Below, piece by piece: positions 2,324 through 62,323 of a stretch of 64,000 nt of DNA; within the stretch, counting starts at the first letter, position 1, and each line of letters begins with the position of its first letter. The translations under genes were made by a program, and so were the position numbers. The stretch comes from a virus, in the IMG/VR virus record IMGVR_UViG_3300045988_063132, positions 38,776 to 102,775 of that record. One strand, written 5' to 3'. The notes beneath the pieces were generated by a model, which saw nothing but the letters and a program-made list of their open reading frames with translations, had not been told where the DNA came from and did no database searches.

Positions 2324-2833
2324 TTAATTACCAGCTAGAGCGCCCAACCCTTCATTGGAAGGTGAAGAGATAGTCCAAGATTCACGAAACTTTTTAAGTT
2401 TCTCCTCAGAAATGAGGTTCCTATGAACCATTCTATGGCAATTAGGACATAAAGTTATTAAGTTTGTAATTTCATTTTTACCACCGTTAGATACAGGTAT
2501 AATATGATGAACATCACAAGAAGTTTTATTCCAACCGCATATTGCACAAGGTTGTAATAATAGAAAATTGTAAAACGATCTAGTAATAGTATTATTAGAT
2601 TTCATTCTTTTACGATAATCTTTTAATTTACAAGCATTTGTACAATACTTTGCTTTAGAAGATTGTGCTTCAAATTCCTGTTCACATACAATACATTTAC
2701 ATTTATATTTCTTTCTATGTAAATTTCTGTATTTAGCAGCACATGAAAGTGAACAAAATTTTGCATTTCCTCTGTTTACCTCTCGTAAATCAGCTTGGAA
2801 TTCATTATTACAATATAAACATTCTTTTTTCAT
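2324..2833 (-). CDS. HNH homing endonuclease with Cys-rich zinc-finger-like region
   Basis: The HNH motif HHIIPVSNGGKNEITNLITLCPNCH is present, with several CxxC pairs. The gene sits in a 1.9 kb otherwise non-coding stretch. Confidence 0.65.
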   Translation of the reverse strand: MKKECLYCNNEFQADLREVNRGNAKFCSLSCAAKYRNLHRKKYKCKCIVCEQEFEAQSSKAKYCTNACKLKDYRKRMKSNNTITRSFYNFLLLQPCAICGWNKTSCDVHHIIPVSNGGKNEITNLITLCPNCHRMVHRNLISEEKLKKFRESWTISSPSNEGLGALAGN

Positions 2834-3074
2834 ATAACTATAACGTATGTGGAGATAAAATGTTCTAATAACTTAAAAGAATCTGTCCCTCCAGCTCCAC
2901 GCTCACAAGAGCTACAAGGGAAAACAAAACTAGGATTTTTGATCGTGTTGACCGTGCGCCAAGTTTTTAAATTTTAGAACGGTCAAAAGGGGCTGCATGG
3001 ATTTGACTAGCAAATTAGAGAGATAAGATAGGTTCATTGTGTGTTTAAATGGCAACACTATGTTTGTCACTGAT

Positions 3075-3126: not shown

Positions 3127-3196
3127 TACTCTTTAGTTCAACAGGTTAGAATCGTAATTTTATTACAGAATGTGGGTTCGAGTCCCACAAGAGTAA
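3127..3196 (+). tRNA. tRNA-like element / probable degenerate tRNA (anticodon loop too short)
   Basis: The acceptor pairs tactctt with aagagta. U8 is present. The D-arm is gttc...gaat. The T-arm is gtggg-ttcgagt-cccac. The anticodon stem gtaat/attac leaves only a 3-nt loop. Total length is 70 nt. Confidence 0.3.
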
Positions 3197-3232
3197 CAAT
3201 TAACTTATGTTTAATTTCTTAAAAGTAATCAG

Positions 3233-4725: not shown

Positions 4726-4780
4726 ATGATAATAGGGTAAGAGAGATTGGGTTCTCTCTTACTCACTAATCCGTAGGCCT

Positions 4781-5347
4781 ATGAAAGAAGAAGAAAAGAT
4801 TCTAATTGAAAAGGCGAAGCACGGTGATGAAAAGGCCTTTAAGCAATTATATGATAATTATTATCGTTTAATACGATATATTATCTATGATGCGATAAAA
4901 GATGAAGAAGCAACAGCTGATTTATTATCTGTTACTTTTACTAAGGCCTTCAAACGTCTCGATTATTTTGTTGAAACTATTTCTTTTGAAGCATGGTTAA
5001 AAACTATTGCAGTAAATACAGTCATTGACTATATTAGAAAGAATAAGAATCAACAAGATAATATCTCTATAGATAATGAGGATAATACAATTCAAATATC
5101 TAGTGATAATGATCCCGAAACTGATTTAATTAAATCAGAGTCAATAGATATTCTTAGAATTGCATTAACTCGACTTAGAGCCAAATATAGGAACCTTCTA
5201 GAACTCAGATATTTTGGTAATCTAAGTTATGAAGAGTTAAGTGCTGAGCTTGGTATACCGGTTGGAACTGTAAAGTCTGACTTAAACAAAGCTAAGCATA
5301 GACTCAAGTATTATTTTCAAAAAATTTCAAAAACTAACAAAACATGA
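4781..5347 (+). CDS. ECF-type sigma-70 family sigma factor
   Basis: The region-2 signature is FEAWLKTIAVNTVIDYIRKNK. The region-4 HTH is LSYEELSAELGIPVGTVKSDLNKAKHRLK. It is preceded by CCGTAGG 4 nt before the ATG. Confidence 0.75.
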   Translation: MKEEEKILIEKAKHGDEKAFKQLYDNYYRLIRYIIYDAIKDEEATADLLSVTFTKAFKRLDYFVETISFEAWLKTIAVNTVIDYIRKNKNQQDNISIDNEDNTIQISSDNDPETDLIKSESIDILRIALTRLRAKYRNLLELRYFGNLSYEELSAELGIPVGTVKSDLNKAKHRLKYYFQKISKTNKT

Positions 5348-5721
5348 CAACATTCATTGTATCTATGCTAGTAATTATCGGTATTGTTGCAATTGCACGA
5401 TATTACGGTAGTTCGTCAATGGCAAGCAATTTATTGCTTACTTTGGCATTTTCTGTTGTCGTGGGTCTTGGTATTCAATTTGCTACTAAGGGAAACCATA
5501 GTAAAAAAGAGAATGCTAAGATTGAAAATTCCATTGCAGTTAGTAATCCTGTATCCACACAGTCTGTTTGTACAGTGTTGGAACCTGTAAAAACTAGCCA
5601 TTCTGGGGCTGTGAGTCAGGTACAGGATTATAAAACTGTAGTAAAGGAGTTTCCACGATTAAATTCCAAAAAGCTTGCGTATACTGAACGTATAGCTCCC
5701 CCATTCCCAGATTCATCCTAG
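5344..5721 (+). CDS. membrane protein, start overlapping sigma-factor stop (candidate anti-sigma partner)
   Basis: There is an ATGA overlap with the upstream gene. Two N-terminal TM helices are present (FIVSMLVIIGIVAIA; LLLTLAFSVVVGLGI). The function is inferred from position only. Confidence 0.3.
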   Translation: MTTFIVSMLVIIGIVAIARYYGSSSMASNLLLTLAFSVVVGLGIQFATKGNHSKKENAKIENSIAVSNPVSTQSVCTVLEPVKTSHSGAVSQVQDYKTVVKEFPRLNSKKLAYTERIAPPFPDSS

Positions 5722-5807: not shown

Positions 5808-7202
5808 ATGGGAAATAATAAGAACAAAGGTCAGAAGACTGACGATAAAACAAAGAAAACTACTGCCGCTCCTGCGGCTGCACCGGCTGCACAAACTAAG
5901 AAAGAACAGCCGAAGACGGGATTAAAGGAAGATAAAACTCCTAAACCCGCAGCTCCTACAGCTCCTAAGAAAGAGGAAAAGGAGACAAAAAAGCCTACTA
6001 CTGATGCTACTGGTACAGTAGAAAATGTAGCAGCAGAAGAAGTAAAGAAACCTGTAGCTTCTCCGTTAGAATCACCTAAAGTAGATTCCCTGATTTCACT
6101 TATGGGTCCTAATGATCTGATGGATGCGAATCATGCTGCAGAATTCTTATCGGCGCTTGAACGTCGTACTGCCCGGATGGATCGTAGTAAACCTATTACG
6201 ATTCAGATGGAATCCATGCTGGATTACAATATGATGTGGTATGCTGTACGTTTGTCTGTACAATCATTTGCACAGAAACGTGAATGTAATATGCTTACGC
6301 CGAATGATGAACTTATTGTTCAGCAAGCCATTGATACGGCTGCATCTATGGGTGTTGCTCTTGAAGCTCATCCTACAGATGATCCCAATCAGATGCGTCT
6401 TGAATTTAAGGATATTTCCCCTGAAACAAAAGCAGCAGCTGATGCAGAGAATGCCGCATCAGGTTTAGCTTCAACAGTTAAACCACCTAGACATGTAAAA
6501 CTTACCGAAGAACAGATGAATCCCCTGAATTGGAAGAATGATGATGAAGCGAAAGCTGCAATCACTCAAGATCTTCAAGAATCAGGAGAAACTCCATCTA
6601 ACAAATTCTTACGTATCTTGGGTAAAATCAAAACATATCGTGAGAATACTACAGAAGATCCCGTTCAGAAGGGAATCTGGAGTAGTGCTAACTTGGGAGC
6701 TCTTGCAAAAGAGTATTTCAACATTATCGGTAAGAAAGGTATTGTTGTGCTCTCTGGACTCATGTCTTCTACCACAACTTCGTTGAAGTTAGGTCAGACT
6801 ATGATCTTTGCACATTCTCTCTTACGGAAGAATATGAAAGGTCTGAATGATCAAGATGTAGTAGACTTGATTAAAGCGTTTATTGAAGTAATGCACGCAG
6901 ATCCTGCACAGCCTATCGAACAAGATCCTTGTGTAGTAAAGGGTATTTTGGCTCCAACTCGTGATACGTTTGTACGTATTGCGTTACAAAAGCCAGCAGA
7001 AGACGAACTAATGGATTGGTTCAAGAAGATTATGGGACCGTTCTATGATATCTATAAAGATGAAGTAGGTTCTAAATCTGATGAAGATTTTGCTCTGAAA
7101 GCAGCAAATAAGATGATCGAAATACGTAACATGTATGTCGATAAAGAAGCTGCATTCCCGCTCTTTACAAAAGAAGATTTCAAGGCTGTAATGGGTAAAT
7201 AA
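5808..7202 (+). CDS. hypothetical protein with Pro/Ala/Lys-rich low-complexity N-terminus
   Basis: 464-aa ORF. The N-terminal ~100 aa are APAAAPAAQTKKEQPK... repeats. The C-terminal domain has no recognisable motif. Confidence 0.5.
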   Translation: MGNNKNKGQKTDDKTKKTTAAPAAAPAAQTKKEQPKTGLKEDKTPKPAAPTAPKKEEKETKKPTTDATGTVENVAAEEVKKPVASPLESPKVDSLISLMGPNDLMDANHAAEFLSALERRTARMDRSKPITIQMESMLDYNMMWYAVRLSVQSFAQKRECNMLTPNDELIVQQAIDTAASMGVALEAHPTDDPNQMRLEFKDISPETKAAADAENAASGLASTVKPPRHVKLTEEQMNPLNWKNDDEAKAAITQDLQESGETPSNKFLRILGKIKTYRENTTEDPVQKGIWSSANLGALAKEYFNIIGKKGIVVLSGLMSSTTTSLKLGQTMIFAHSLLRKNMKGLNDQDVVDLIKAFIEVMHADPAQPIEQDPCVVKGILAPTRDTFVRIALQKPAEDELMDWFKKIMGPFYDIYKDEVGSKSDEDFALKAANKMIEIRNMYVDKEAAFPLFTKEDFKAVMGK

Positions 7203-7215
7203 CCTATTATATCAA

Positions 7216-7599
7216 ATGAAAGGTAAATTTGCTTATTTAGCAGTATTCGTTGTAGGTCTTATTATGTCCTACAATACTAACATTTTCAAACCCGAAAGTG
7301 TTACGGCAACAGAAACCATTAAAACGGTTCAGTTACCCCCAATTCCAGGTAATTTTAAACTTAACCTGGATTTAGAGACAGGTAAAAGTATCGTGGAAAG
7401 TAATATACCCGTTACAAGTACTGATATAACTGTCAATCACCCCACGAAAATCGTGGAAAAGGTAGTGTATAAAAAATCTAAACCCAAAGTAGTATATGAA
7501 ACAAAAACTGAGGTACAAACGAGACCGGTAATGTTCACTCTACCAACTCCCCGCTCTCACAAATTTGTACCTGAGTATCCTAAAAGTGTAGAGAAATGA
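7216..7599 (+). CDS. secreted/membrane-anchored protein
   Basis: 127-aa ORF with an N-terminal hydrophobic segment (FAYLAVFVVGLIMS). Confidence 0.45.
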   Translation: MKGKFAYLAVFVVGLIMSYNTNIFKPESVTATETIKTVQLPPIPGNFKLNLDLETGKSIVESNIPVTSTDITVNHPTKIVEKVVYKKSKPKVVYETKTEVQTRPVMFTLPTPRSHKFVPEYPKSVEK

Positions 7600-10044
7600 A
7601 GCAAAAAATAACTAAAACTAATATAGTATCATTAATTGGTATTATCTTATTCTATTTATTTTGTTTATTTTTTGCTTATTGTATTAGTGATTAACTATGT
7701 GCTTACCGTAGAATGGCACCGGGGAAAACGAGTCTCTCCCCCGTAGTAAGAAGCAGGGCATTATATATAGTGGTATTGTAGCTGTACACTCTAAAAGCAA
7801 TAAGACAGCATATATATATTAGGAATATCAAAGGCCAAGAGGATTCGTATATATAGATAAGTAATACAGGATATGAGAATATGATAACAGCTAACACTGT
7901 GATTCAAAAGGTAATATGATAGCTTACTATGGATTTATTACTTTATCCGTGAAGAATTAGTAAGAAAATGGGATAGCGTGCTAAACCCATAAAATCTCAG
8001 AGAACCGTCTGGCGGAGATTTAAAAAACGCGATCTAGGTCAGCAGACACGAAGACAAATTCAGCAAAGGTATCGGCATCCTAAAGTAAATATAGTTATGA
8101 GATGTATTTATGAGTGTATTGAAGTCTACACAAAGGAGAAACCTATGTCCGTGGGTACAATCATGTACGAAATCAAGAAGGGACTAAACACGAGTTGCCC
8201 CTTAGTTAAACATCCAAAAGTTTACTAAGTTTTGACTCCTGACTAACGTTCTTGGGTGTGTCCAAAGCATCCATTCTGAATCTATTATTGGAAGATATAG
8301 ATAAGATAAAAATGCTACTGTAGTGTTCTCTACAAGGTACCAAATGGTTTAAATTGGAACGTATGTTTAAATACATATAAAAGTAGATATGAAGGCAGAG
8401 AGATTAATCGAGGGTGCTATTAGGTGCTACGTGAAGAAGTAAAACGGTACAATTCCGTAATCTTTTACTCTTAGAAGTAAAGGATAATAGTCTGTATTAT
8501 TACTTTGAAACATATGGCTGAGAGGCTATGATCCATACAATGAACTTTAAATTCATTAGAATATAATAAGAATTCGAGACTTTTATTATATTTAAGTATG
8601 ACAGATTATCCGGATTAGGTGCCAAACCTATACTTAATAGAACGATTAATACAAATGTGTCAGTGTTTGCTTCAAGTTATGACACAATAATATATGGAAA
8701 GAAGCAGGTTGTAAAACGTGTCCTATAACACTACTACAGAATAACGACATCCTTTAGCAAGATGGTTACTTCGCAAGAAGTGAGAGGGATCTCAATAATT
8801 TACGTTATCGAAAAGTTAAATACGCCGGTAGAAACACCGTTACCTGAGAAGAAAGGTAGAAGTTCAATCAGATCTCAGTCGGCTTTCCGAGAGATAAAAA
8901 GCGAAAGTTGGGCTAATGTATAGTCAATGGGCTAAATTCAAGTCTGTTAATCCAGAGAAACGTAAATGTTATGATATTTACCTGAATCCAACGATTCATC
9001 ACTGGCCCGAGAGTTAACGTCACTCTTAAACAAAAGCGAGAATAACATGTTTAACCTAAGTAGTGGCTACGCCCACGAAATAATAAATCCAGGGGAGTCC
9101 CCGCTAGGGATAGTAGAATCTGCTGTTGTATAGTAGTATATGTTTCCTGACTGCGTCCTTGGCAAGCCAACCGTTATTGCTAAATAAAACTAATAGAGTG
9201 TATTGCGCAACAATATATGTTCATTAGAAAGCGTTTCATGAATCTTCATAGACTGGATACCTGTCGTGCGGAAAGAGTAGTGAAAAGTAGGTGGAAGTCC
9301 TCAATATTCGTGCTTGTAAAACAATCCTATGGACGGTTATATAATAATATATATTATTGTATGTAATTCCGTATAGGAAACTTAAAACCGTTGCTGCATT
9401 TGTAGGGCAGAACTAGTTAAGTAACGTTAGAAAACGACCGTATCTGTAACGGATTCGATAAAGTGGTAAGTATTAACTTCTGGGTAATTATAAGCTACAT
9501 GACAGGCCAATCTGCATGTGCAACTGTCTTGCAAACAGTTACTTTGTATTTGTGATTACTTGCTGAGATTAACCCCGAGACGCCGGGAAATACTAAGTTA
9601 ATATGATGAGCAATAGTTCCTTTCTCTTAAGCGTAAGAGAATTGTAAAATCTAAAGTAATGGTATTATAATATGTATATTAAATGTCTTAGATCTCATTA
9701 GTCTAAAGAAAAAGCTGTGCAGTATCAATAGTATGATAAGCTATTAATTTATTATATGTAGACACTCGTATAAGTAATATTAATTCTGGTATCCGAACTA
9801 CTCTGTAGAAGCAAGGAATGCAGAAAGGAAGAGGAAGTATCTACCTTGATTTCGATGTAAGTAAATCATTAATATGAAGATTATGCGTTTAAAACGAAAA
9901 TATTTATACTTTGTAAAGGATTGTACTTGAATGTACGTAGACGATTAGACACATCCTCTATATAATAAAATCTATACAAAGAGAGCAAAACTCGTTAATT
10001 TAAACTCATAAAATATGTAAATCAATTGTTTAACATCTCCGTAG
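7600..10044. other. 2.4 kb region with no ORF >=60 aa except one 64-aa antisense ORF
   Basis: Stop codons of all three kinds occur in all frames on both strands where sampled. The composition looks less AT-skewed than flanking genes. Several local hairpins are present. No T-arm motifs, direct repeat arrays or CRISPR-like periodicity were seen. Confidence 0.5.
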
Positions 10045-17649: not shown

Positions 17650-17965
17650 ATGATAGTATTACCTACAGAAAAAGTAAAAGCAAAAGTAAATAATCCTAGA
17701 TTTTTGATTATTTACGGTCGACCTAAAACTGGTAAAACTAGTTGTGTAGCAGCTCTAGAGAATAATTTAATTATTGATCTAGAAGGTGGCTCTGAATTCT
17801 TAGATGCATTAGCAGTACAAGCAAGAACTGTTAATGATTTCGCTGAAATTGCAAATGCAATCAGAGAAAAGATCAAAGAAACAGGCAAAAAGCCCTATAA
17901 GTATATTACTATAGATAATGCTACACGACTAGAAGAAATATGTCTATCTTACGCAGGTACGCTCT
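17650..17965 (+). CDS. Sak4-like (AAA_24) recombination ATPase, exon 1 (Walker A and Walker B region)
   Basis: Matches include LIIYGRPKTGKTS, LIIDLEGG and YITIDNAT. The frame is terminated by an intron-borne stop straight after the predicted 5' splice site. Confidence 0.55.
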
Positions 17966-18800
17966 AAATTTATGGAGCGCTATTTAGTAATGAATAGTGT
18001 AAAAGCTTTCTAATTTCTGGAACATTTTACCTTTAAGTACGTTAAAGATACATTTAAAGTAAAAGGTAAAACAATCAGAAGCGAAGCAATGAAAGAAAAA
18101 ACATTAAATAAATATATTGGTAAAACTCATGGTGTATTAACTGTTATAGATTTAGACCATGAAACTTATGATAAAGAAAAACAAAGAAAACGAACTTATT
18201 TTAAATGCAAATGTAATAAATGTGGTAATATAACTATAGTAAGATCAGATAAATTAACTACTAAATATTGGATACCAAAGTGTTGTAATAATTGTGTCAA
18301 TCAACAACAACACGAAACGGCAATAAAATTACATGAAAACGGTATTCCTAGTTATTTTAAAAAAAGAATTAGTTCTATTAAAGGAAATGCAAAAAGTAGA
18401 AATATAAATATGCAATTAACTAATAATGAAATTTATAACATTATTCAAAAACCATGTTTCTATTGTAAAGAAAAAGAAGCATATGGAATAGATAGAATTG
18501 ATTCTACAAAAGATTATACTATAGATAATTGTGTACCTTGTTGTTTTATTTGCAATCGTATAAAAAATAAATATTCAATAGGTGTTTTTCTAGATAAAAT
18601 AAGTAAAATATATAATAATTTTTTCATTGAACGTTCAACGACTATCCCGAAAGGGAGTACATTACAAGCTAATGGTAATGGAAACGGAAGCATTCCTACT
18701 ATTAATTAATAGGGAATATGATATAGTCTAATCTATATGGTGACATATAGCAGTTCATAAGAGAACGTATACAAATTTGCGAATTGTATAGAATATAATG
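17966..18800 (+). mobile_element. group I intron with HNH homing endonuclease ORF (boundaries approximate at the 3' end)
   Basis: P1 pairs exon cgctcU (17960-17965) with intron Ggagcg (17974-17979), giving a U-G at the splice site. A P-like element (taatttctggaac) is near 18010. A Q-like element (aatcagaagc) is near 18076. The R element gttcaacgacta is at 18633-18644. The S element atgatatagtct is at 18718-18729. An omega-G sits at 18800. P10 pairs intron tttat with exon-2 ataaa. Confidence 0.6.
18089..18709 (+). CDS. HNH homing endonuclease (intron-encoded)
   Basis: It has Cys-rich zinc-finger pairs and the HNH-type motif GIDRIDSTKDYTIDNCVPCCFICN. Its 3' end overlaps the R element. Confidence 0.65.
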   Translation: MKEKTLNKYIGKTHGVLTVIDLDHETYDKEKQRKRTYFKCKCNKCGNITIVRSDKLTTKYWIPKCCNNCVNQQQHETAIKLHENGIPSYFKKRISSIKGNAKSRNINMQLTNNEIYNIIQKPCFYCKEKEAYGIDRIDSTKDYTIDNCVPCCFICNRIKNKYSIGVFLDKISKIYNNFFIERSTTIPKGSTLQANGNGNGSIPTIN

Positions 18801-19228
18801 ATAAAGCTCAACCTCAAGGAAAATCTTGGCAAGGTACTGATGTTAGATTGCTTCCACAAGGAGCAGGATATCAATATATTAGACTTGCTGTAAGAAAAGT
18901 TATCGATATGTTTAAAGAACTTACTGATAACTTAATTCTTATTGGTCATACTAAGGATAAAATGATTAATAAGAATGGTGAGGATATGACAGAAATGTCC
19001 TTAGATCTTGTAGGTAAACTAGGAGATATTATATGTGGAGAAGCTGATGCAGTAGGTTTTATGTATCGAAAAGGTAATGAAACAATTATTAATTTCGATA
19101 GTAAAGATGAAACTACAAAAGGAGCAAGAGCACCACATTTGCGTGAGCAAAAAATAGTAATTGCAGAAAGCAATGAAAACAATGAATTAGTATTTCATTG
19201 GGACAGAATTTATTTACCAGAAGTTTAA
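18801..19228 (+). CDS. Sak4-like (AAA_24) ATPase, exon 2
   Basis: The frame is open from 18761. It contains LILIGHTK, typical of AAA_24 downstream of Walker B. The predicted junction reads ...SYAGTL-Y-KAQPQGKSWQG... Confidence 0.5.
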
Positions 19229-30773: not shown

Positions 30774-33524
30774 TTAACTTTTAATACAATGATTCATTTC
30801 ATCAGTTGGAAATTCTTTAGAATCGTTAAACTCATTATTTGATTGATTCTTCGATTCTTCTTCTGGTTTCCTATGTTCTTCATTATCTTCAGTTACTTCA
30901 GTAGCTTCAACGTTTGTAACATCAAACGGATTGTCAATAGGAACAAACATTTCATTTTGTAAGAATTTAGGTTCAAATTCAATAGAAAGATCTGTAGCAT
31001 CTATCCTCTGATTACCATCAATAAAAGAAGTAGTAGTACCTTCATTAATGGTAAAACCTCTTTCCTTGAAGTTGATGGAATTGGTTGCAGCATATACAGG
31101 ATAATAATCTGTTTCATTTTGAAGTCTACCAACAAGTTTGAAAAGAGTATTGTTATACTGTAAATAAGGAACTGGTAAACCTGTAGTGGTATTATAGTCT
31201 CCTTGTTCTGTAGTAATGTACACTGTTTGACCTTCATGTAATTGCTGTCTGTTTGGTGTAGCAGATTGTACTATATCTTCTACGCCTTGTAAAGCTCTAA
31301 ATGCATAATCCACATATTTATTAAAATCTAAAGAGTTATCGTTAGAACGTTTTAACAAGTCTTTCAGATGTTGATTGTAAGTATAATCTACACCATCCAC
31401 AGTATAAGATAAATTACCCAGTACTTCAAAAGGTACTAAATCTAAAGTAGCATAAATACCTGTACCTCTACCACCACTAGTATAGAAGGAGTATATAATT
31501 AAATCTTTTGCAATATTTCTAACTTCTTCTGAACTATGTTCTAATAGATCTCTCCAAGCATAAGTGTATGCGTTCTTTGCATCTGTATCTCTTAATTTCA
31601 ATACTGTTTCAAATTTTTTAGGTTTACCTTCTACATTTATGCCAGGTATAAGCATCTTCAGTAACATGTTGTCGCTTAATTCTAGATACCTAGTACCAGT
31701 TAATATTTGATTTCTAAGTCTATCTACTCTGTCTACAATAGTGTTATTACCATAGAACATGTCTTTCAAATTTATATTGTTTTGCTTACAGTATTCATTA
31801 AAAAATTCCGCCTGCATCGCAAACTTCATTTCTGACATATACTTGGTTATATTGTTTGATTTTCTATCATAATAAGTATTCGATAATTCACCAAACTTAT
31901 TGACCATTTTTAAGAAACCTGGACTGAACTCTATCATTTCATTCTTAAGTAAGTCGAATAATAGACCTGTACTATTGTTTAGTTTTCTGCCTAAGAATGT
32001 TTTATTATACACATCTTCAGCATTAGTAAAATGAGGATCATCCATCATCCTTTCAATGTTATGTAAAGACAGTATCAATTCAGCTTGATTTTTACCCATT
32101 TTACCGGTATCCACCTGAGAAGCCAACACCATGTTACTTAATGCCTTACTATAGTTCTGAATATCTGTAAAATATTCATATATAATCACTTGATTTCTAT
32201 ACCAATCTGTAGAGAAGTTTTTATTATAATGATCTCTCAATTGTTCTTTTAACCATTCAGCATTAAATACTAAATCTTTTACATTGTAAGTATTACCATT
32301 CCATTCTATAGTAAGAGTTCCATCATCTAAACGACTGTAGAAATTCTTTTTATCAAGCTTGGCTGCTTTTTCGTATTTGTTTAATATAGAATCCTTCCAT
32401 CGTTTATCATTTCGCTCTTTCTTAGTAAGACCCATCTTTGATGAACCTCTTCTAATGGACTCATTTGCAATCTCTTTCAATACCGGTTGAGGTAAAAAGT
32501 AAAATTGATTCAAACCAACACCAGAGGAAGTTAATAAAGCTACTACATCATAAGTATACGAGTTTACATTTAAACGAGTAATATAAGAGTCTTTTGCAGC
32601 ATCTACGTGGGCATTGATCAATGCAGAAGTCCAATCCATGATGGAGATACCATTAGCATCAAATTTATCATACAAATTACCTATATTTGGTATAATACTA
32701 AAAAGATTTCTCTTTGTATTGACCTTGCCTCTTCTTCTAGATATTTCTATAGTTTTATCAAGATCCAATTTTGCGATTTGCATAATTACACGGAAGGTAT
32801 TAATCAAAGCCATAGGTCCAATACCAGCGTCTGCACCAACGTTTTGTGTTTTAACGTTTTCTTGATATAAAGGGAATAATGGTTCAAGATTGTTATAATT
32901 CTTATTGATATTAGAATAAGAATCAACCACTTTTACAGCTTCTTTTAATGCGTCTGTAGCAAAGTCCAAAGGTACTGTTGCATCCATATAATGATTTGAA
33001 GAAGTTAAAGTCGTTTGGAATACTTCTAGCAATCTATTTTCAATCTGTCTGTGATCATTTAATTGCCATTTATTTTTACCAGAATTCTCTTGCACAAATT
33101 CTTCAAAAGTCATTTTTCTATCTTCGAACTTGAAAGATGATGCTAATTTAAGAATCTTTTTATTAGGAGCTAATTCTGGATCTCTTAAAATTTGATTAAA
33201 CTTTCTTTGACCTATAAAGATTGAATATTTATTTTTCATACTCTTGAGTATATTAATAGAATCTTCAGTTAATTCTCCATTTCTATTAATATCCACCAGT
33301 ACAGATTGTAATATTTTAGGTATTTCTACTTTTGCTTGTTTGTAGAAATCTGTATTAAACCAACGATATCTATGATCGTATACTTTTTTCAAGTATTCTT
33401 CTTCGTTCAAATAAATCGGATTACCTAATTCATCTAATCCTACATAATCATCAATGAATTCTGTCTTATATAATTTACCACCTATTACATCATAATTATA
33501 TCTAGCTAGATACATTTTATCAAC
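30774..33524 (-). CDS. giant multisubunit-RNAP-like protein, exon 2 (begins VDKMY...)
   Basis: The frame is open upstream of the annotated Met. The predicted 3' splice site after omega-G (plus 33525) yields D-F-D|V-D-K-M. Compare the beta-prime NADFDGDQM motif. Confidence 0.6.
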   Translation of the reverse strand, partial: VDKMYLARYNYDVIGGKLYKTEFIDDYVGLDELGNPIYLNEEEYLKKVYDHRYRWFNTDFYKQAKVEIPKILQSVLVDINRNGELTEDSINILKSMKNKYSIFIGQRKFNQILRDPELAPNKKILKLASSFKFEDRKMTFEEFVQENSGKNKWQLNDHRQIENRLLEVFQTTLTSSNHYMDATVPLDFATDALKEAVKVVDSYSNINKNYNNLEPLFPLYQENVKTQNVGADAGIGPMALINTFRVIMQIAKLDLDKTIEISRRRGKVNTKRNLFSIIPNIGNLYDKFDANGISIMDWTSALINAHVDAAKDSYITRLNVNSYTYDVVALLTSSGVGLNQFYFLPQPVLKEIANESIRRGSSKMGLTKKERNDKRWKDSILNKYEKAAKLDKKNFYSRLDDGTLTIEWNGNTYNVKDLVFNAEWLKEQLRDHYNKNFSTDWYRNQVIIYEYFTDIQNYSKALSNMVLASQVDTGKMGKNQAELILSLHNIERMMDDPHFTNAEDVYNKTFLGRKLNNSTGLLFDLLKNEMIEFSPGFLKMVNKFGELSNTYYDRKSNNITKYMSEMKFAMQAEFFNEYCKQNNINLKDMFYGNNTIVDRVDRLRNQILTGTRYLELSDNMLLKMLIPGINVEGKPKKFETVLKLRDTDAKNAYTYAWRDLLEHSSEEVRNIAKDLIIYSFYTSGGRGTGIYATLDLVPFEVLGNLSYTVDGVDYTYNQHLKDLLKRSNDNSLDFNKYVDYAFRALQGVEDIVQSATPNRQQLHEGQTVYITTEQGDYNTTTGLPVPYLQYNNTLFKLVGRLQNETDYYPVYAATNSINFKERGFTINEGTTTSFIDGNQRIDATDLSIEFEPKFLQNEMFVPIDNPFDVTNVEATEVTEDNEEHRKPEEESKNQSNNEFNDSKEFPTDEMNHCIKS

Positions 33525-34427
33525 CGCTACTACCTTATATCTCTATAAGGGCTAGACTATATCTTCACCTTACGGTGCTCCCCATTTCGCCTTTCGGCTA
33601 CACAGCGTGTGTACGCTGACTCAAATCATATTGAATTTTATGAATCATTGAAGGAACCTGTTCAACAAATGGTTTTACAATGTTTATAAACTTTATTCCT
33701 TCTTTTGTTCCACAGCATAAAGAATAACTGTTTTCTTTTTTGCCTTCGTGAAACATATAAAAATCAATATTCCAAACTTCTTTAAAGTAATCTATTATTA
33801 TTTGTAATTCTTCTTTTGGCATACAAGTTGCAATTTTTATATAGAAACCATGAACTTTACCATTAGTTGTTCTATAATTTATATGTCCATCATCCATATA
33901 CCAAATTGCAATTCCTTTAGCATCAAGTCTATTTAACAATTTTCTATTACCTATTTTTTTATAAGGTTTGTAAAAAACTCTTCTTAAGACCTTTACAAAA
34001 GGTATAATATTTAATTGTGTGTAATAAACTGTTTTACCAGTATTATAACCTTTAACACTGACGTATTCTTTTAAACCGTTGTTTCGTAAACCTGCTTCTT
34101 TAAGTTGTTCTATTTTCCACTCAAGATAATCGCGTTGTTCTTCACAATGACTTAATTTAAATACGTTGTTATTACTTATTGTTCCATCACCAAGTAAAAG
34201 AGCTATTAATAAATTTCTAGATTCTTTAGTTATTTTTGTTTTCATATTTGCTATCCATTTAGGAAGCTTCAGTTGAGTATTAGTCGTTGAACCTTCCGAT
34301 TAGTTATATAGATAACGATCGGCTTGGCTGCTGGTTGCCCAATCCTTTGGGTTTTTACTACGCTTAGTACCTTAGGCTCTAAGGGGTTTCCAGCAATTAA
34401 AGGAGTTTTACTTCAACTATGTTGTTA
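33525..34427 (-). mobile_element. group I intron (903 nt) carrying a LAGLIDADG homing endonuclease in P8
   Basis: P1 pairs exon CUUCGAU with intron GUUGAAG, giving a U-G. P10 pairs intron CAAC with exon-2 GUUG. The P element aattgctggaaac and Q element aaccagcagcc are present. The R element ggttcaacgactaatac is at plus 34278-34294. The S element gaagatatagtctagccc is at plus 33549-33566. The intron ends in G. Confidence 0.75.
33598..34245 (-). CDS. LAGLIDADG homing endonuclease (intron-encoded)
   Basis: Two LAGLIDADG motifs are present: LIALLLGDGTIS and IAIWYMDDGHIN. Confidence 0.75.
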   Translation of the reverse strand: MKTKITKESRNLLIALLLGDGTISNNNVFKLSHCEEQRDYLEWKIEQLKEAGLRNNGLKEYVSVKGYNTGKTVYYTQLNIIPFVKVLRRVFYKPYKKIGNRKLLNRLDAKGIAIWYMDDGHINYRTTNGKVHGFYIKIATCMPKEELQIIIDYFKEVWNIDFYMFHEGKKENSYSLCCGTKEGIKFINIVKPFVEQVPSMIHKIQYDLSQRTHAV

Positions 34428-37400
34428 ATCGAAGTCCGCACCGGTTAACTTAGTTAATTCGGCAGGTAATACGATAGTATCCCCAACATTCGATGGCAAT
34501 ACGTCTACTATAGTAATAGGTAATGTAGAGTTCATACCCTGAGTAGGAATACGATAAGACAGAACTGCTAAATCCTGATTATCTAAGATGAATTTTTTAG
34601 CCTCTTCAAAGTAAGAAGTGTTATTCTTTTTTGCTTGTTCTAATAAATAATCTTTTGGCAGTACATCTTTGAATAGATTTATAGATACAATTGCTTGTAA
34701 TCTATTATTTTCATCCTTAAATCGAAGTTCTTTATTGAATTTATATTCATATTTGCTAGCGTCTACTTCAGCAAAAGAATCTTTGTAAGCAAAGTTAGAC
34801 ATCTGAATCATGGAACCACCAGGAGTATTTATATCTATGGTTTCTTTCTTAATCATAGATATGATACGACTTTGAATCCAGGCTAATGCAGGTATACCAG
34901 ATAATTCAATATAGTAATCTTTGTTACCATCTTCATTTTCAATGGTTTTTAAAACATCAATAAGATTTGATGGTAAGTTACTATTTATGGCATCATCCTT
35001 TAACATTTGAACAAACTTGTCACGATTAACGGTCATATAGGTTTTACCATTCTCTGTTATTTCGCTTATCCCAAACTGTTCATATATGTTATTTCTACCA
35101 ATATCTGATAAAGCTGAAATAGCTCCTACGTAGTCATCAATTAATTGCTTACCAGAATATTTTACGCCTTCGTATTCATACACATCATTGTCTTCTACTC
35201 CAGCAACACCAATTTTAGCCATCTGAGTACCTAACGAGATTCTAGATACATGGTGAGGATCTGTTACCAACTGTTTACCTAAATACTTGAATGATTGTTC
35301 ATATACAGGAATTTCTTGTAATTCTGTATTAGGTTTACCATCTACATAGAATGTACCTTTTTGTCTTAAACCTGATTTTACAGAAGTATCAAATTTAATC
35401 ATGTCTACATCTTTATCATTCATTAAATCATATACTTTCTGTAAGTCTCTACCTTTTGCTACTCTTTTGAATACAGTAGCCAATGACATCTTATCGTAGA
35501 TGGGTATCTGTAATCCATTAATGAAATCATAACCAAAATGTATGTATTTCAATGGTTGCATTACTACAGAATAAGCATACAATTCATCTTCTAATGATAA
35601 AGGCTCATCTGATTCCATTAAATTATAAGCTTCTTCTTTTTCTCCATTCCACTCACCATTCATGATGGCAAGTTTTCTAAACATCTTTGGGCTAATAAGT
35701 ACCTGCGCATCTGTTTGGTCAGTTTCAAGATAACCATTTAAACGTTTATCAGCTTCTTTAACCACCTCTTCTTTCAATTGTTCATCAGTCATATCAGCAA
35801 ATCTACCAACACGTCTTTCTCTGAACATCTCAAACTGTTTCCAAAGTAAACCATGATTGTCATCAGTACCTACGTACTTCGACATCATTTCATTATACAT
35901 TACTCTGGATTCTACAATGTTTGAATTGAAAATAGCAGTTTTATACTTGTGCGTATCAAAGTCTAAGAATCCTTCTGGCCAATTTTCACGTAATACAGAT
36001 TTTGTTGAAGTTAATGCAGAATAACGTTTTACTCTATCATCCAACATTGCCTGATAGTCTTTACTACCTTTATAAAACGCAACATCCCCTGATACAAGTT
36101 TTTCAAATTCATACACAGCGATTGCTGAATTTATAGCATAATCTGCAATAGCTTCTGCTAAATCAATTTTTTCATTAACCTTTTGTTTTACAATAGATGC
36201 TGGTAAAAGTCTATTACTAAATATAAGATTTGTATTTATCCTTTTACTGTCGTTTTCTTTTATAAACTCATCATCCAGATACTTTTCGTTACCGTTTATC
36301 AATTTCTGATTAATAAACTGTTTTATAGTGTTGTTAACTTGTTGAATAAGACTCTCTTCAATTACTTTTCTAAGACCTTTACTATTAATATCAAAGAATT
36401 TATCATCTGATAATTTATTTTGTAAAGATGAGAAATATCTGAATTTGTAACCATTACCTGTTAAACGCATTGCACCACCTTTAACAATGTAATGGTAGTT
36501 TTCAACAAGTTCTTTATAATTCGTATCTTTCTCTTTCATTAAAGAATCCTGTTCAACTTTTGACATCTTGTTCCAAGATTCTTCAGAAACACCAAGTCTA
36601 TTTAAGAAGTTATTCTTAGCATTTATTGCAGCTTGAATTGTAGAGTATTCATTGATAGCATAATTTACAAATAAATCAATAGTTTCTTTATTCAAAGAAC
36701 CATTTTGAATAGTAACCTCTTGACGATTCAAACCTGTTATAAAATAGAATGTACGTTTGTTTGCAAGAGTTGGTAAAGGTAAACGATTGTTTCTTACAGC
36801 ATTGAATTTAAGTAATAAGTCTTCATTTGGTGCTATATCCAAATACCCACGTCCTGTATCATAGCCATCTTTATCAATCATAGATAGCATTGTATCAACG
36901 TGAACATTAGATCTTACTTTGGGATCAGTCATCTGTTGCAACCAAAATGAAGATTTATTATAAGTTACACCATTTATCTGAGTAAAGAAGCTATCGTCTT
37001 TTAACCATTCTTCAAACATAGAAGTAATGGTGTTATTTTCACTATACGCATAAACCAAGTTGCCATCTGGTCCTAACACACTATCATCTTCCGCTGTAGG
37101 ATTTGCAGCAACATATGCTTTTGCCAATTCTGCTACCGATTTTTCTTTGCTTAGTAAATTTAAAGCATGACTAGTTACATCTTCTATTTTGTCGTTAACC
37201 AAATTGTAAAACAAACCTTGTTCTCCAAATAATTGGTCTAATCCTACAGGATCTTTAGAACCAACTCTAGGTACACCATTTATAAGATTTTTTAAAGCAA
37301 CGTTTAGATTGCTATTAAAATAATGATTATTTAATAAAACACCGATCGCATCACCATCTACAGCAATGTTCACATTGTTAAGTATGCGGACTAATTCTAG

Positions 37401-40400
37401 TACATTCTCGGCATAATCGTTTTTAAGGAAATTGTGCTTTTTAGATTTATTTTTTAACTCTTTATAATCTGCAATAGCTTGTTGTAAAACATTCTTATTT
37501 GCAAATGTACCATTTACACCGAATGTTGCTGACCAGTTCTGTTCAAGTCTATTAGAACGTTTATTAACATCAGCGTCACCATAAGTAATAGTATAAGAAG
37601 TTAGCTCTTTACCTTTATCATTGGTATCCTTACCAAAGTAAGCGTTAATAAATCTATTTCTGTGTTTTTTAAACGTATTCCAGAATCTTGTTTTCAACAT
37701 TTCATCCTCGTTACCACTTTCATCCTTAGTGGTAAGGATTTCATACAATTCTGAATACATATTTATCTTACTAGAATCTCCTTTGGCTTGTCTGATAGTA
37801 CTGGTTTCATCTGCTTTTTTCTTCAACAGCTCCAACATTTCATCTATAGACTTTGCATTGTGAATTGTACTAAAGGCATTAAACCAAGCTACATCGGGAT
37901 TTATATATACAGGAAGGAATGTTTCTGGATCTAATGTTTCAGAATCTTTTAATGTTAAAAACATTACTCTAATATCCGCTTGCGCATTTTCTTTTGCTGA
38001 AAATTCATAAGCGGATCTTATTTCATCATTAACTAAGTCATTTAGATCATCTTTTTCCTCTAGTTTAGATTCTACTCTACGTATATTAAATCCTTGCAAC
38101 TTAACATCAATAAGAGGTCTAAACACTGTATCAAAGTTATCAAGTATTTCATTATAAAGATCTACCTTTTCTTCGTAGATAGCTCTTTCTAATTCACCAA
38201 ACGCTTCGTTTTGTGAGGCTGCTAAATGCTTATCTCTGATGTCAATTAGTTGATCTTTTACTGCCTTAAAACTTAATCCTCTCTCTAAACTTTCTATATT
38301 CTGTATACCATTAACATCTATGGTCATAGAAGTTAAAGTACTAACAATATTTCCAAGTAAAGAGCTATTGTAAATTTGATGCAATGTGACTCCATTAACA
38401 GTAAGAGGTGCATCCGCATTTGCATATCTTTGATTAAAATTAGTTAATGCCGCTTTGTTAATCTTAGCAAATTTATATTTACCGTTTTTAATAGCATTAA
38501 AAAATCCATCAATATTATCTATTTTGGTTTTGTTTAAACCTAAGAATGATTTAATAAAGTTTTTAATATCTGAAATAACTCTACCTAACTTACTGTGGGA
38601 ATCGGGAGTATTATTGATAACATCTTCTCGGAAACGTTCAGCTAAAAATTCTTCCACTTCATTATCGTTACGATTAAATAGTGAATATTCTTTTCTAGCT
38701 AAATTGTACATTCTGGCTTGTTCTTCCGGACTCAACAATAATAATGATACTCTATGAAAAGCTTCATGATAAGCAGCACCAGCCGCTGGACGTTCAAACA
38801 AGGTTACACCATCCTCATTCATTATTGACCATGCCCAACCAGGTCTACCAGATTCTCCAATTATACGAATTAATTGATCTACCAATTTAATATTACCACC
38901 AGCTCTTTTACCAAGCATTCTACGATAATTTAATAATTCTTTTTCTAAATCAGAAGTTTGTTTAACATTATCATAAACCTGCATTGATACAGAAGGTTTC
39001 TTACCAAAAGTAGTAAACTTATTTTTTGGTTTTTTTCTAGTAAAACCAATCATTTCATCAGTAATACCGGCAGCTTTATTTAACTCTCTTGGATCTAATG
39101 GAGCGTTGGTAACAGGAGCTTCTTTTACTGGAGATTCTTTGATTTTTCTTTCTCTTAATTTAAGAGTACCTTTACGTATGTCATTATAAATTTCAAAATT
39201 AGGTATAGAATCTGAAATTTGATCATTCATTCTAGATAAGAAATCAATCATCTCATCAGAATCCATTTGATCAAAATTGTTTCTATAGTCATTTACCAAA
39301 TTTTGGTATTCGGCTGCGTCTTTTACATACGCTCCTAATTTAAACGGAGATGTTTCCTTAGTAATCTCAACAAGAGGTTTTTCAGTATCCGTTGCTTTCT
39401 CATCTACTTTTTCTGGCACAGTTTTTACTGGAGAAATTTGTTGAGATGCTTCTACTGGAATTACTTTACCTAAATTTAAAAGTATTCTACTTACCGTATT
39501 CCCATCTGGGAAAGTATAATCCAATAAATTTGATAACTCTTCTTTTGTTATATTCGCACTAGGTATTGCTTTACGTTTTGTCAACAATGATCTAACAGCA
39601 CTATCATACATCAATTTGCTAGATAATGTTGATAAATTATTTATAAGTCTATCATAAACCTCACGTAATTTTTTCACCTCTTCCGTTTGCTCAATGGAAT
39701 CAAAAGGATTATTAGTAAGCAAACCAAAAGTATTTGTATTTTTTGGTTCAGGTTTAGCTGTTTCTTTTCTTTTAGACTCTGCAGAAGGTTTTACAGTTTT
39801 TGGTGGAGCAATTGTAGCCTTTTTAATAGCTTCATAGTACTTGGGATTTTCAATTTGTTTATTTTGTTTGTTGACTGTAACAGTTTTTTGTGTATAAATC
39901 TTTAAACCTGTTTTATCAACAGTAACCAATTTACCCTCATCTTTTACTTTTTCCTGAGCTTCTGGATGTTCACTTTCATATTTTATAAGATCATCTATAC
40001 TCTTGTTATACACATCTACAAGGGCTTTTCTTATATTCTGTGAAAGTTCTTCTTCATTTAACCCTTCAATATTTAACAGTTCTTCTCCTTTTAAGGAAAC
40101 CAATTTAGTTCCTTGTTTTACTAAAGCTGCTTTATTTGCATACTTTTGAGCACCCGGAATTTTTGCAGTTATAGTACTACCGTCTGGTAAATTGTTTATC
40201 TTTTCAGATAAATTTTCTACACTTTTAAATACGATTTCCTCTTTTTCAAAGACTTCAGAAGTTTTCTCTTCCTTCGGAGAAGGAACACTATCTGTAGTAA
40301 TAACTCTCTCGGTTATAGGAATGTTTTGTACTACCAAATAAGATTTTGAAATTAAACCTTTAGATATATCTAAATCAGTACTTAAAAAATCATTATCAAT

Positions 40401-43400: not shown

Positions 43401-44768
43401 TTCTTCTAAGCCTTCTTCAAAAGCGCTACCTACTCCAATTTTATTAGTAGCGGTAAATCTATCTACGGCATTAACTATGTTATTAATAATTCTATTTGAT
43501 ATGCCTCTATCAAACAATTTTGACATATCTCCGCCAGTTTCATTTACTACAGCTTGTGCTGCCATTTTTCCAGATTTTCCTGTAGCCAACCATCTTGTCA
43601 AAGCGTTTGAACCAAGTTTTTGTTCAATGACTGTATTAATAGCACCAGTAAGTAAACCAACAGATGCTGCATCTTCTAAACTAAGACCAGCATCTCTAGC
43701 AGCTTGATAAGCTTCACCGTAATTTAACACCATACCAGCACCAACCATTGGTAATACTGTAGGAGCGCTTTTGATTGCTTCATTGAGTGTTTTACCTATA
43801 GTACCCAAAGTTTCTACTTCTTTGCCTGTAGCAGCTAAACCACCAATAAGACTACCAACTCCGGTGTTAGCTATTGCTCTACCTACTCCGGCATAGGAAA
43901 CCAAGGAAGACATAACATTACCCATAACATTACTAAAGCTTTCCAAATTATCAAACATACTTTGATCAGCTTCTACGCTAGTCTTACCGTAAGGGGTATC
44001 TCTGGTTATTTCTTCTTGTCGATAATCTGCTAACGCATTTAAACTATCGTATTCTGATTTATAACCTTCACCTTTAGCTAAACTAGAAACAGCTTCTGCA
44101 ATATCTCCTGCCCCAGCAGCAAAACTGTAAATGCCAGGAAGAATACCATGTAACCCTCTTGCAAAGCTCTCGGTAAATCCCAGTAATGCGTTACTTGTTA
44201 ATTTTTTAGGTCCGTAGGAATTAATAATTGAAGTACCTGCTAATTCTACTTTCGCCATAGATTCTTTTGTACCAACTACTTGTTTTAAAGTATATTTTCC
44301 TGTTTCAGGATCAATAGCTGGAGTAAAATAACTAAATAGTTTAAAACTATCAGGTCTGCTTTCTTTTTCCTTCAGTCCTTTTAATACTTCATCAGTTTTA
44401 CCTTTCATAACTTTTAAAAAGTTATTTCTAGTATTGCCTTCTGTACCTTCTGCAAAATCTTCAATATCCATTGAATCTTCTTCAGATAAATATCCTAAAG
44501 ATTTCCTAAGTAGTGTGTTACCCAGGAAATCTTCATCTAAATTCAATTCTGATAGACTTTGCTTTTCGCCACCTAATTCATCAGCAGCTATATATTCATC
44601 ATTCATAATGGAGTTTACCAATGCCACGGATTCTATTTCCTCATTGGCCAATCCTTCATTAAAATTGTTATTTATAATGTTAGGAACAGTATAATAAGAA
44701 TTATAAGTATTTCTTAATACTTCTAATCCGTTTGGTTTGTTGCTAACTGTATCAAAACGTGGAAACAT
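34428..44768 (-). CDS. giant multisubunit-RNAP-like protein, exon 1 (3447 aa; ends ...LTGADFD)
   Basis: The C-terminal ...VLPAELTKLTGADFD resembles the beta-prime ...AAYNADFDGD motif. An HExxH motif (YHEAFHRV) also occurs. Exons 1 and 2 together would encode about 4363 aa. Confidence 0.6.
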
Positions 44769-61595: not shown

Positions 61596-62141
61596 TTACT
61601 TAATCTTTTTAACTAATTTCTTAATCTTTGGTAAATCTTCTTTATCAATAGTGATATCTAAGTACTTCTCGCCTTTTCTTTTAATGAACTTGCTGAATAT
61701 TTTCCAAGGTCCAGTAGGATCTAATGTTTGTAGATTCTCTACCATTGACCATAGTTCTACACCAGCAACAAGACCAGCAAAACCCTCAACTAAGTGCGCA
61801 TCGATGGATGTCAATATATATTCATCTACTAGATGACCACAGCTTATCATTAATGAACTAAAGCAAAGCTTTTTAACAGTTGACCAAAACTTTCTAGATT
61901 GAATCTTTTCACCATTACTTAATGACACTCTAATACCTAATATCATATCAATGATTATTAGTATTCCTACTGCAACTATTGGTAACCAAATAGGTAAAAA
62001 GAATGTGCTTACAGCACTAGATAAAGCAGTACTAATGCAAGTAAAAAATTTAATCGGACCATCATTTATTAGTTCTTTAAAATAATTCACTGTTGATACA
62101 CTTGAGGCTTTTATTATAATATCGTTTATATATCTAAACAT
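61596..62141 (-). CDS. multi-pass membrane protein (holin-like, by topology only)
   Basis: Three to four hydrophobic helices are present. Confidence 0.35.
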   Translation of the reverse strand: MFRYINDIIIKASSVSTVNYFKELINDGPIKFFTCISTALSSAVSTFFLPIWLPIVAVGILIIIDMILGIRVSLSNGEKIQSRKFWSTVKKLCFSSLMISCGHLVDEYILTSIDAHLVEGFAGLVAGVELWSMVENLQTLDPTGPWKIFSKFIKRKGEKYLDITIDKEDLPKIKKLVKKIK

Positions 62142-62323
62142 GATTGAAGATTTGTGAGACTTTGAAAAAACAAAACGCTAGACAATCTAAAAGAATGCTA
62201 GCGTTCTGAAAATTATATGATACTTAGAGCTTGATATATAAAGTAAACGATTATATTAAATAAAGGTTCCTCTTATAAAGAGGACTATTACATACCTAAT
62301 AGCGGTTATTAGATGATAACTAT

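Follow-up and report, generated by a model that had tools for sequence, protein, structure and literature searches.

Which genes does a sigma factor encoded by a human-gut crAss-like phage serve, and what is the role of the small membrane protein encoded directly behind it? The question is raised by a stretch of viral DNA of 64,000 nucleotides (nt), called the window below (IMG/VR record IMGVR_UViG_3300045988_063132, positions 38,776 to 102,775 of that record), in which two consecutive open reading frames (ORFs) were found. All coordinates are those of the window.

4781..5347, + strand: extracytoplasmic function (ECF)-type (group 4) sigma factor of the sigma-70 family, 188 amino acids (aa), ATG start, identified by hidden Markov model (HMM) and structure-relative matches
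5344..5721, + strand: conserved membrane protein, 125 aa, ATG start, with an N-terminal two-helix hairpin, described from the ORF, its hydropathy and an AlphaFold2 model

We propose that this sigma factor is, fairly probably, a specificity factor that acts on the host RNA polymerase for late genes and mobile endonuclease genes, and that it reads promoters of the type GAAC-N16-CGTT. We assign it this late-gene role because the motif fronts the holin/tail operon, the head operon and endonuclease genes, and is missing in two sigma-less crAss-like phages. The sigma gene itself is not new and was annotated before in near-identical genomes. The analysis adds a candidate regulon, a description of the membrane partner and of its conservation throughout the family, and a hairpin located just upstream of the sigma gene.

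The sigma factor and its distribution

The first-pass annotation of the window, made from the letters alone, had read sigma-70 region 2 and region 4 signatures of the ECF subfamily in the 188-aa product. Both ORFs are present as it described them, and HMM searches confirmed the signatures above the curated Pfam and NCBIfam thresholds. Pfam Sigma70_r2 matches residues 23-89 (1e-12; 48.1 bits, cut-off 24) and Sigma70_r4_2, with the helix-turn-helix of region 4.2, matches residues 127-175 (3e-12; 46.4 bits, cut-off 25.7). Further matches were obtained with Pfam Sigma70_ECF (35.8 bits, cut-off 21.1), with the NCBIfam sigma70-ECF model TIGR02937 (3e-31; 108.1 bits, cut-off 42.9) and with PHROG 1740, 'RNA polymerase sigma factor' (2.4e-33). 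The sigma2 (residues ~23-89) and sigma4 (~127-176) domains are separated by an acidic linker of ~35 residues, and the alignment of regions 2.1-2.4 shows the conserved pattern FxxLY...DLxxxxFxKAF...WLxxIAxNxxIDxxR. Region 1.1 and region 3/sigma3 are absent from the protein, only the region 2 and region 4 models match, and its size fits that of ECF sigma factors (~170-220 aa). The best relatives of solved structure are Escherichia coli sigma-E (1or7, 4e-17) and Bacillus subtilis SigW (5wuq, 8e-17).

Narrower assignments were rejected. The top equivalog-level NCBIfam match, SigY (NF007216), scores 96 bits vs a cut-off of 194, and the Bacteroidetes model Sig70_bacteroi1 (TIGR02985) 90.4 vs 126.4. 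The label 'sigma-W' given in MT774376 fares no better, with the SigW models NF007223 at 93.1 bits vs 209 and TIGR02948 at 79.2 vs 243. As no equivalog or subfamily cut-off is reached, we classify the protein by sequence as ECF-type at the superfamily level only, and the GenBank name 'sigma-W' is unwarranted. A second 'RNA polymerase sigma factor/ubiquitin-like protein' annotated in the late region of the crAss-like genome cr125_1 (locus 45770-46375), as well as its homologue in the window (60203-60946), belongs to DUF7841 and is not a sigma factor. The late region of the Oafivirinae genome cr130_1 likewise has a second 'sigma factor' annotation.

The crAss-like phages cr55_1 and cr1_1, classified as Culoivirus intestinalis (Crassvirales, Suoliviridae, Boorivirinae), share 98% identity with the window over 6 kb. 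The NC_055869 and cr1_1 records name the gene 'RNA polymerase sigma factor' and its neighbour 'hypothetical protein'. Since cr55_1, cr1_1 and other Suoliviridae records in GenBank/RefSeq carry the sigma label, the gene is no discovery. Using tblastn, we detected it in ~25 further Crassvirales genomes, and the records that we opened all belong to Suoliviridae (8/8). The scan for sigma-bearing viral loci was made with a single sequence and covers two close clades. In the literature on crAss-like sigma factors, we found no discussion beyond a passing mention for Zeta-type mouse phages; Yutin et al. 2021 do not mention the sigma factor.

In protein searches the phage clade, found on contigs of ~100 kb, ranks first, and the nearest cellular homologues are ECF sigma factors of Bacteroidota, with 36-42% identity. 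The link to Bacteroidota made in the first-pass annotation is thereby upheld. Because its cellular relatives are Bacteroidota ECF sigma factors at this level of identity, sequence comparison suggests that the phage gene was captured from a host.

A candidate cognate promoter

Searching for ECF-type -35 and -10 pairs upstream of phage genes had been suggested together with the first-pass annotation. A candidate of this type is GAAC-N16-CGTT. The motif was first spotted in the upstream regions of two ORFs as GAACATTTTA...ACGTTA. The window contains three exact sites, vs 0.69 expected. We then considered 293 kb of Boorivirinae sequence, composed of the window, the 5' part of cr55_1, cr50_1 and cr10_1. 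At a spacing of 16, this set has 11 GAAC/CGTT sites, vs 0-6 sites (mean ~3) at the other spacings between 8 and 27. All 11 are intergenic and aimed at a start codon 9-105 nt away, in genomes whose non-coding share is 10-15%.

A twelfth exact site is found in cr125_1, a member of the Uncouvirinae whose sigma factor is 45% identical; it is also intergenic, lies before the holin gene and faces the gene start. The same genome has further variant sites before three endonuclease ORFs. The genes behind the 12 exact sites are those of the holin/tail operon, the head operon and homing endonucleases, with 5 of the 11 Boorivirinae sites preceding HNH/homing-endonuclease ORFs. The motif, or a variant beginning with CAAC or TAAC, is kept at orthologous positions in cr55_1, cr50_1, cr10_1 and cr125_1. 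It is retained at the divergent region, where the structural operon begins, at two internal sites close to the chaperonin gene, and in front of the holin and homing-endonuclease genes. The motif therefore has a characteristic position, orientation and preferred spacing, and it is conserved across genomes that share a conserved sigma factor with defined ECF domains. Two Steigviridae that have no sigma gene, crAss001 (100 kb) and cr111_1 (50 kb), are devoid of GAAC-N16-CGTT, and one endonuclease gene of these phages bears a Bacteroides-type TAnnTTTG box instead.

When all pairs of 4-mers were enumerated by spacing over the whole genome, codon periodicity and shared coding sequence dominated, and no promoter was recovered; the top pair, GGAG-N18-CTCC, was dismissed as coding noise. 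A position weight matrix (PWM) built from 19 sites was overfitted and gave zero new window sites over its threshold. The intergenic DNA of the window shows no enrichment of Bacteroides primary-sigma promoters (TTTG...TAnnTTTG), and matches to the E. coli-type TTGACA/TATAAT are at chance level, as are the results of promoter and terminator scans around the sigma/partner pair.

Sites in the window

The exact sites of the window, one weaker variant and the holin leader are as follows.

62246..62269, - strand: candidate sigma-dependent promoter, GAACCTTTATTTAATATAATCGTT, 105 nt upstream of the holin gene, heading a long leftward tail/virion operon
62165..62206, - strand: hairpin followed by a T-run, intrinsic-terminator-like, between this candidate promoter and the holin start codon
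61596..62141, - strand: holin (Phage_holin_4_1), the first gene past this candidate promoter
18020..18043, + strand: candidate sigma-dependent promoter, GAACATTTTACCTTTAAGTACGTT, 46 nt upstream of the HNH/EndoVII-like endonuclease ORF 18089-18709
2842..2865, - strand: candidate sigma-dependent promoter, GAACATTTTATCTCCACATACGTT, with the ATG of the HNH ORF 2324-2833 located 9 nt past the -10 element
34314..34337, - strand: weaker variant, CAAC-N16-CGTT, tentative and below the PWM threshold, 69 nt upstream of the LAGLIDADG ORF 33598-34245

The holin-side site has orthologues in cr50_1, cr10_1 and cr125_1, and the order promoter, terminator-like hairpin, holin is kept in these three genomes and the window. 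By analogy, the leader hairpin hints at an additional control step before the holin gene.

The endonuclease sites are tied to mobile ORFs. ORF 18089-18709 is an insertion that splits a Sak4-like AAA_24 gene (region 17650-19228). cr55_1 has neither this insertion nor the promoter at 18020, which exists only where the insertion does. The LAGLIDADG ORF 33598-34245 is likewise an insertion relative to cr55_1, and it breaks the gene of the virion RNA polymerase (30774-44768) into ORFs of 913 and 3447 aa. As the ATG is only 8-9 nt past CGTT at several motif sites, some of the mRNAs that start there may be leaderless, and that of the HNH ORF 2324-2833 may be one of them.

A proposed transcription cascade

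In the crAss-like phage phi14:2, the virion RNA polymerase reads the early genes and the rifampicin-sensitive host RNA polymerase the middle and late genes (10.1101/2020.03.07.982082). The host enzyme uses sigma-70-like promoters there. In the phages considered here, the sigma factor would be produced early, from the rightward early/replication gene block, and would displace the host sigma factor on the host core RNA polymerase. The resulting enzyme would go to a small number of phage promoters, (G/C/T)AAC-N16-CGTT, often in the form aGAACaTTT...ACGTTa, and would thereby activate the late operons together with the mobile endonucleases. This would be the second step of the programme, after early transcription by the virion-packaged RNA polymerase. 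No GAAC-N16-CGTT is found upstream of the sigma gene itself, and a cascade thus fits better than autoregulation. The terminator scan detected no terminator between the sigma gene and its neighbours.

The first-pass annotation had supposed that the sigma factor redirects the host RNA polymerase to middle promoters of the phage. The redirection is plausible, because an ECF-type -35/-10 motif, GAAC-N16-CGTT, precedes phage genes. The middle timing did not hold up, as the targets look like late genes and homing endonucleases. That the phage sigma factor rather than another factor reads the motif, and at which time, is what we infer from these observations.

Several points weigh against this cascade. 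The pairing of the sigma factor with the motif is predicted from sequence alone. Each genome has ~3-8 motif sites, and the statistics therefore lean on position and conservation more than on counts. The holin promoter alone may be insufficient, because a terminator-like hairpin precedes the holin gene. Bacteroidota hosts have ~22 ECF sigma factors of their own per genome (PMC7826278), any of which might read a GAAC/CGT promoter. Lastly, the motif is without enrichment in cr130_1, a member of the Oafivirinae whose sigma factor is ~30% identical. This result reflects either a diverged specificity or a weaker link between sigma factor and motif, and because of it the claim is confined to Boorivirinae and Uncouvirinae. 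The alignment shows that Oafivirinae sigma factors differ in their DNA-contacting helices, a difference that could explain an altered motif in this subfamily.

In an alternative scenario, a host ECF sigma factor or some other factor would read the motif sites. The phage sigma factor would then target host genes or unrecognised phage promoters, or compete with host factors so as to shut off host transcription. GAAC/CGT is indeed a generic ECF promoter shape and the hosts have many ECF sigma factors (PMC7826278), but these are normally kept inactive. The holin site of the window also overlaps a TTTATA-N18-TATAAT match, yet matches to TTGACA/TATAAT are at chance level and TAnnTTTG boxes are unenriched in intergenic DNA. 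The unenriched motif in cr130_1 despite its sigma homologue speaks for a host factor, although the differing DNA-contacting helices of the Oafivirinae sigma factors could account for a changed motif. Finally, four genomes with the sigma gene have the motif, and the two sigma-less crAss-like phages do not. Altogether, we consider it quite unlikely that a host factor is the reader, and we retain the phage sigma factor as the probable one.

Anatomy and conservation of the membrane partner

The product of the second gene had been described in the first-pass annotation as a protein with two transmembrane (TM) segments that overlaps the sigma stop codon by ATGA and lacks an obvious anti-sigma domain. 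All of this is correct. The overlap lies within ...AAAACATGACA..., and no Pfam, NCBIfam or PHROG family matches the protein. Its hydrophobic helices span residues ~1-17 and 30-46 according to hydropathy, and residues 2-21 and 24-49 in the AlphaFold2 model, with a predicted local distance difference test (pLDDT) score of ~85. This hairpin is the sole folded part of the model, and the remaining tail of ~75 aa is disordered (pLDDT <50). Conserved features include an ARYYGS(P)K loop, a Lys-rich stretch past TM2 and the tail motifs KIE, P-M-Q and G-x-V-G-Q, and the C-terminus, phi-x-D-[SDT]-S-COOH, is invariant. There are 3-7 Lys/Arg residues after TM2 vs 1-3 in the loop. Based on this charge distribution and the positive-inside rule, the protein probably has an N-in/C-in topology, with a cytoplasmic tail.

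The family is found only in phages. We collected 20 close matches, and 27 clusters among 1.84 billion representatives, all of 116-140 aa. The gene directly follows the sigma gene in all four Suoliviridae subfamilies and in 44 of 44 IMG/VR viral contigs. The ATGA overlap is not conserved, most relatives having a spacer of 6-16 nt, and 4-nt and 1-nt overlaps are frequent in the window, at about a dozen junctions. The overlap is therefore real but unspecific for a functional pair. The partner is co-transcribed and co-inherited with the sigma factor.

The synteny extends further downstream. The sigma gene, the 2-TM gene and two genes coding for proteins of ~470 and ~130 aa form one syntenic four-gene block in Suoliviridae, of which the last two are, in the window:

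5808..7599, + strand: two genes that always follow the sigma/partner pair in Suoliviridae, coding for a 464-aa all-alpha protein and a 127-aa protein with an N-terminal hydrophobic segment

The 464-aa protein (5808-7202) has a disordered, Lys-, Pro- and Ala-rich N-terminal region of ~90 residues and an all-alpha body with pLDDT ~85-90 (70.5 for the whole AlphaFold2 model). It has no family match and no sequence match in the PDB, and a Foldseek search against the PDB gave nothing below E=0.4. As the entire block is syntenic, the adjacency of sigma factor and partner is weak evidence for a functional link, and on this point the competing roles of the partner stay level.

An anti-sigma factor or an independent membrane protein?

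The arrangement had been taken in the first-pass annotation for the classic layout of a sigma/anti-sigma pair. The adjacency stood up to analysis; an anti-sigma domain, a conserved ATGA overlap and anti-sigma genes beside the closest cellular homologues were not found. Like class I anti-sigma factors, the partner is encoded beside the sigma factor and co-transcribed with it, being adjacent everywhere we checked, with no terminator between the genes. It has neither the N-terminal cytoplasmic helical domain of ~80-90 aa of this class nor an HxxxCxxC motif, and its N-terminus runs straight into TM1. Instead of a single TM segment and an extracytoplasmic sensor domain, it has two N-terminal TM segments and a disordered tail. 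The genes of the three closest cellular sigma homologues lie between a glycosyltransferase gene and rsmG or among other genes, with no adjacent anti-sigma gene, and no ECF-type autoregulatory promoter was found upstream of their operons. We conclude that the partner is not a classical anti-sigma factor.

A non-classical one might work as a tether or timer. The tail would hold the sigma factor at the inner membrane until a signal or proteolysis releases it, which would set the time of late transcription. The position of the gene directly downstream of the sigma gene in every Suoliviridae genome examined, even where the sigma factors are 27-30% identical, and the probably cytoplasmic tail are in line with this idea. 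The short linear motifs of the tail and its invariant D-[SDT]-S end also resemble binding or degron sites. A precedent exists in the B. subtilis sigY-yxlC operon, in which an unconventional regulator immediately follows an ECF sigma factor (PMC4105308). Nevertheless, the searches of Pfam, NCBIfam and PHROGs revealed neither an anti-sigma domain nor a zinc motif, AlphaFold2 predicts no folded soluble domain (tail pLDDT <50), and the topology is the reverse of the classical one, with N-terminal TM helices and no cytoplasmic domain before them. Furthermore, most relatives have a spacer in place of the ATGA overlap, the 464-aa and 127-aa genes further downstream are as syntenic as the partner, and no anti-sigma gene accompanies the closest sigma homologues of cellular origin. 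The phiEco32-like phages, which have ECF sigma factors, show no anti-sigma candidate either (PMC7881722). We thus regard an anti-sigma function of the partner as doubtful.

Could the partner instead be an early membrane protein that works independently of the sigma factor, serving superinfection exclusion, immunity or the take-over of the membrane or host, or acting as a holin-like protein or antiholin? It would then sit beside the sigma gene only by virtue of a packed, syntenic early block. In overall shape, a small 2-TM protein with a charged tail is reminiscent of T4 Imm-like exclusion proteins and class II holins. The partner family is tiny, phage-only and uniform in size (116-140 aa), gene overlaps and short spacers are the norm across the window, and the whole sigma/2-TM/~470-aa/~130-aa block is conserved. 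On the other hand, the partner resembles no known exclusion or holin family, and its slot directly after the sigma gene is strictly kept family-wide. It is not the recognisable holin of the phage, because that gene (Phage_holin_4_1) is located at 61596..62141 and the partner matches no holin model; lysis genes too lie elsewhere, and in cr125_1 they cluster at the holin locus. We consider this independent role the most likely one for the partner, with a little less than an even chance.

A more ambitious version of the tether can be formulated. The partner would represent a new class of phage anti-sigma factor or timer, whose disordered cytoplasmic tail, with its KIE, PMQ and GxVGQ motifs and C-terminal D-S-S, keeps the sigma factor membrane-bound until it is degraded or displaced. 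In combination with the terminator in the holin leader, it would form a clock of several layers that times late transcription and lysis in Suoliviridae, the Delta group. We deem this version improbable.

A hairpin upstream of the sigma gene

Another conserved element precedes the sigma gene.

4735..4769, + strand: hairpin with a 12-bp stem and a 6-7-nt loop, followed by an invariant (C/T)ACTAA, 12 nt upstream of the sigma start codon

Comparison of five Suoliviridae revealed compensatory changes in 8 of the 12 pairs. The hairpin is not an intrinsic terminator, because it has no T-run. In cr50_1 and cr10_1 its loop is TTCGACT, which is tRNA T-loop-like, and 12 bp is the length of an acceptor plus T-arm minihelix. 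The hairpin may be an RNA processing site of the RNase P/Z type or a regulatory element for sigma expression.

Other features of these genomes

Two structured RNAs were identified in the window with Rfam.

1319-1498, + strand: RAGATH-22 RNA, 125.6 bits, above the gathering threshold
2152-2396, + strand: group I intron, 63 bits, above the gathering threshold

Both matches lie upstream of a tRNA-Lys gene (3127-3197), in a region where relatives have 'tmRNA' annotated. The HNH endonuclease ORF 2324-2833 (- strand) overlaps the group I intron match on the opposite strand.

The four-gene block is followed by 2.4 kb without any ORF longer than 64 aa (7600-10044). This region aligns with unannotated stretches of cr50_1, cr10_1 and, in part, cr125_1, and has many strongly conserved blocks between variable ones, a pattern seen in large structured non-coding RNAs. 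No Rfam match was obtained for it at E<=1. In a 6-kb query, it was the sole nucleotide-level match between cr55-like and cr50-like genomes. As for cr125_1, 38% of its whole genome is apparently non-coding under the standard bacterial code, vs 10-15% in the others, which is consistent with a stop-codon reassignment.

Significance

No phages are more abundant in the human gut than Crassvirales and, to our knowledge, the switch from early to late transcription of crAss-like phages is known for one marine relative only, phi14:2. Among crAss-like phages, a survey of the gut crAss-virome identified the Delta group (Suoliviridae) as the largest (PMC7886860). If the sigma factor reads GAAC-N16-CGTT, Suoliviridae use a distinct, self-encoded transcription switch. 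This would account for the expression of the many homing endonucleases of these phages, and would provide orthogonal sigma/promoter parts for the engineering of Bacteroidales. Because the proposal is limited to one defined protein and a few named promoters, in vitro assays and metatranscriptomes allow a direct test that needs no cultured host. Since the gene was already annotated, the value of the analysis resides in the regulon and the conserved partner.

Comparison with known systems

Regarding the sigma/partner pair, the cellular systems E. coli sigma-E/RseA and B. subtilis SigW/RsiW also have a membrane protein encoded directly downstream of the sigma factor. However, RseA and RsiW are composed of an N-terminal cytoplasmic helical anti-sigma domain, one TM segment and an extracytoplasmic domain, in contrast with the two N-terminal TM segments and disordered tail of the phage protein. 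As to sigY-yxlC, the SigY model gives 96 bits on the phage sigma factor vs a cut-off of 194; the latter is therefore not SigY, and the partner is likened to YxlC by gene position alone.

The holin leader calls to mind pR'-tR' of phage lambda, where a late promoter is followed by an intrinsic terminator subject to Q antitermination, upstream of the lysis genes. Here too, a late promoter (a candidate in our case) has an intrinsic terminator within ~40 nt and lysis genes beyond it. The likeness is one of layout only: unlike in lambda, no Q-like antiterminator was identified, and the terminator may equally close the upstream operon.

In T4, short late promoters are served by the sigma factor gp55, and late promoters also precede homing endonucleases encoded in introns, I-TevI for instance. 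A phage-specific sigma factor, short late promoters and, as proposed here, mobile endonuclease ORFs with their own phage-type promoters are shared with that system. Nevertheless, gp55 is highly divergent, depends on gp33 and the sliding clamp, and recognises a -10-like element only, TATAAATA, whereas the sigma factor described here is a canonical ECF protein with a bipartite promoter.

The closest known system is the ECF-like sigma factor of phiEco32-type phages. phiEco32 gp36 and its homologues in Kuravirus and Privateer-like podophages are, like the protein described here, small two-domain ECF-type sigma factors encoded by lytic phages. The phiEco32 sigma factor binds to the core RNA polymerase of its host (Savalia et al. 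2008, as cited in PMC7881722), and phages of this type have no recognisable anti-sigma factor annotated (PMC7881722). In contrast with phiEco32, the phage of the window belongs to the order Crassvirales and has a Bacteroidota host, the similarity of the sigma factors is at the superfamily level, and the Crassvirales protein is known from its sequence only. Furthermore, unlike phiEco32, a crAss-like phage injects its own virion RNA polymerase, so that its sigma factor would be the second of two transcription systems.

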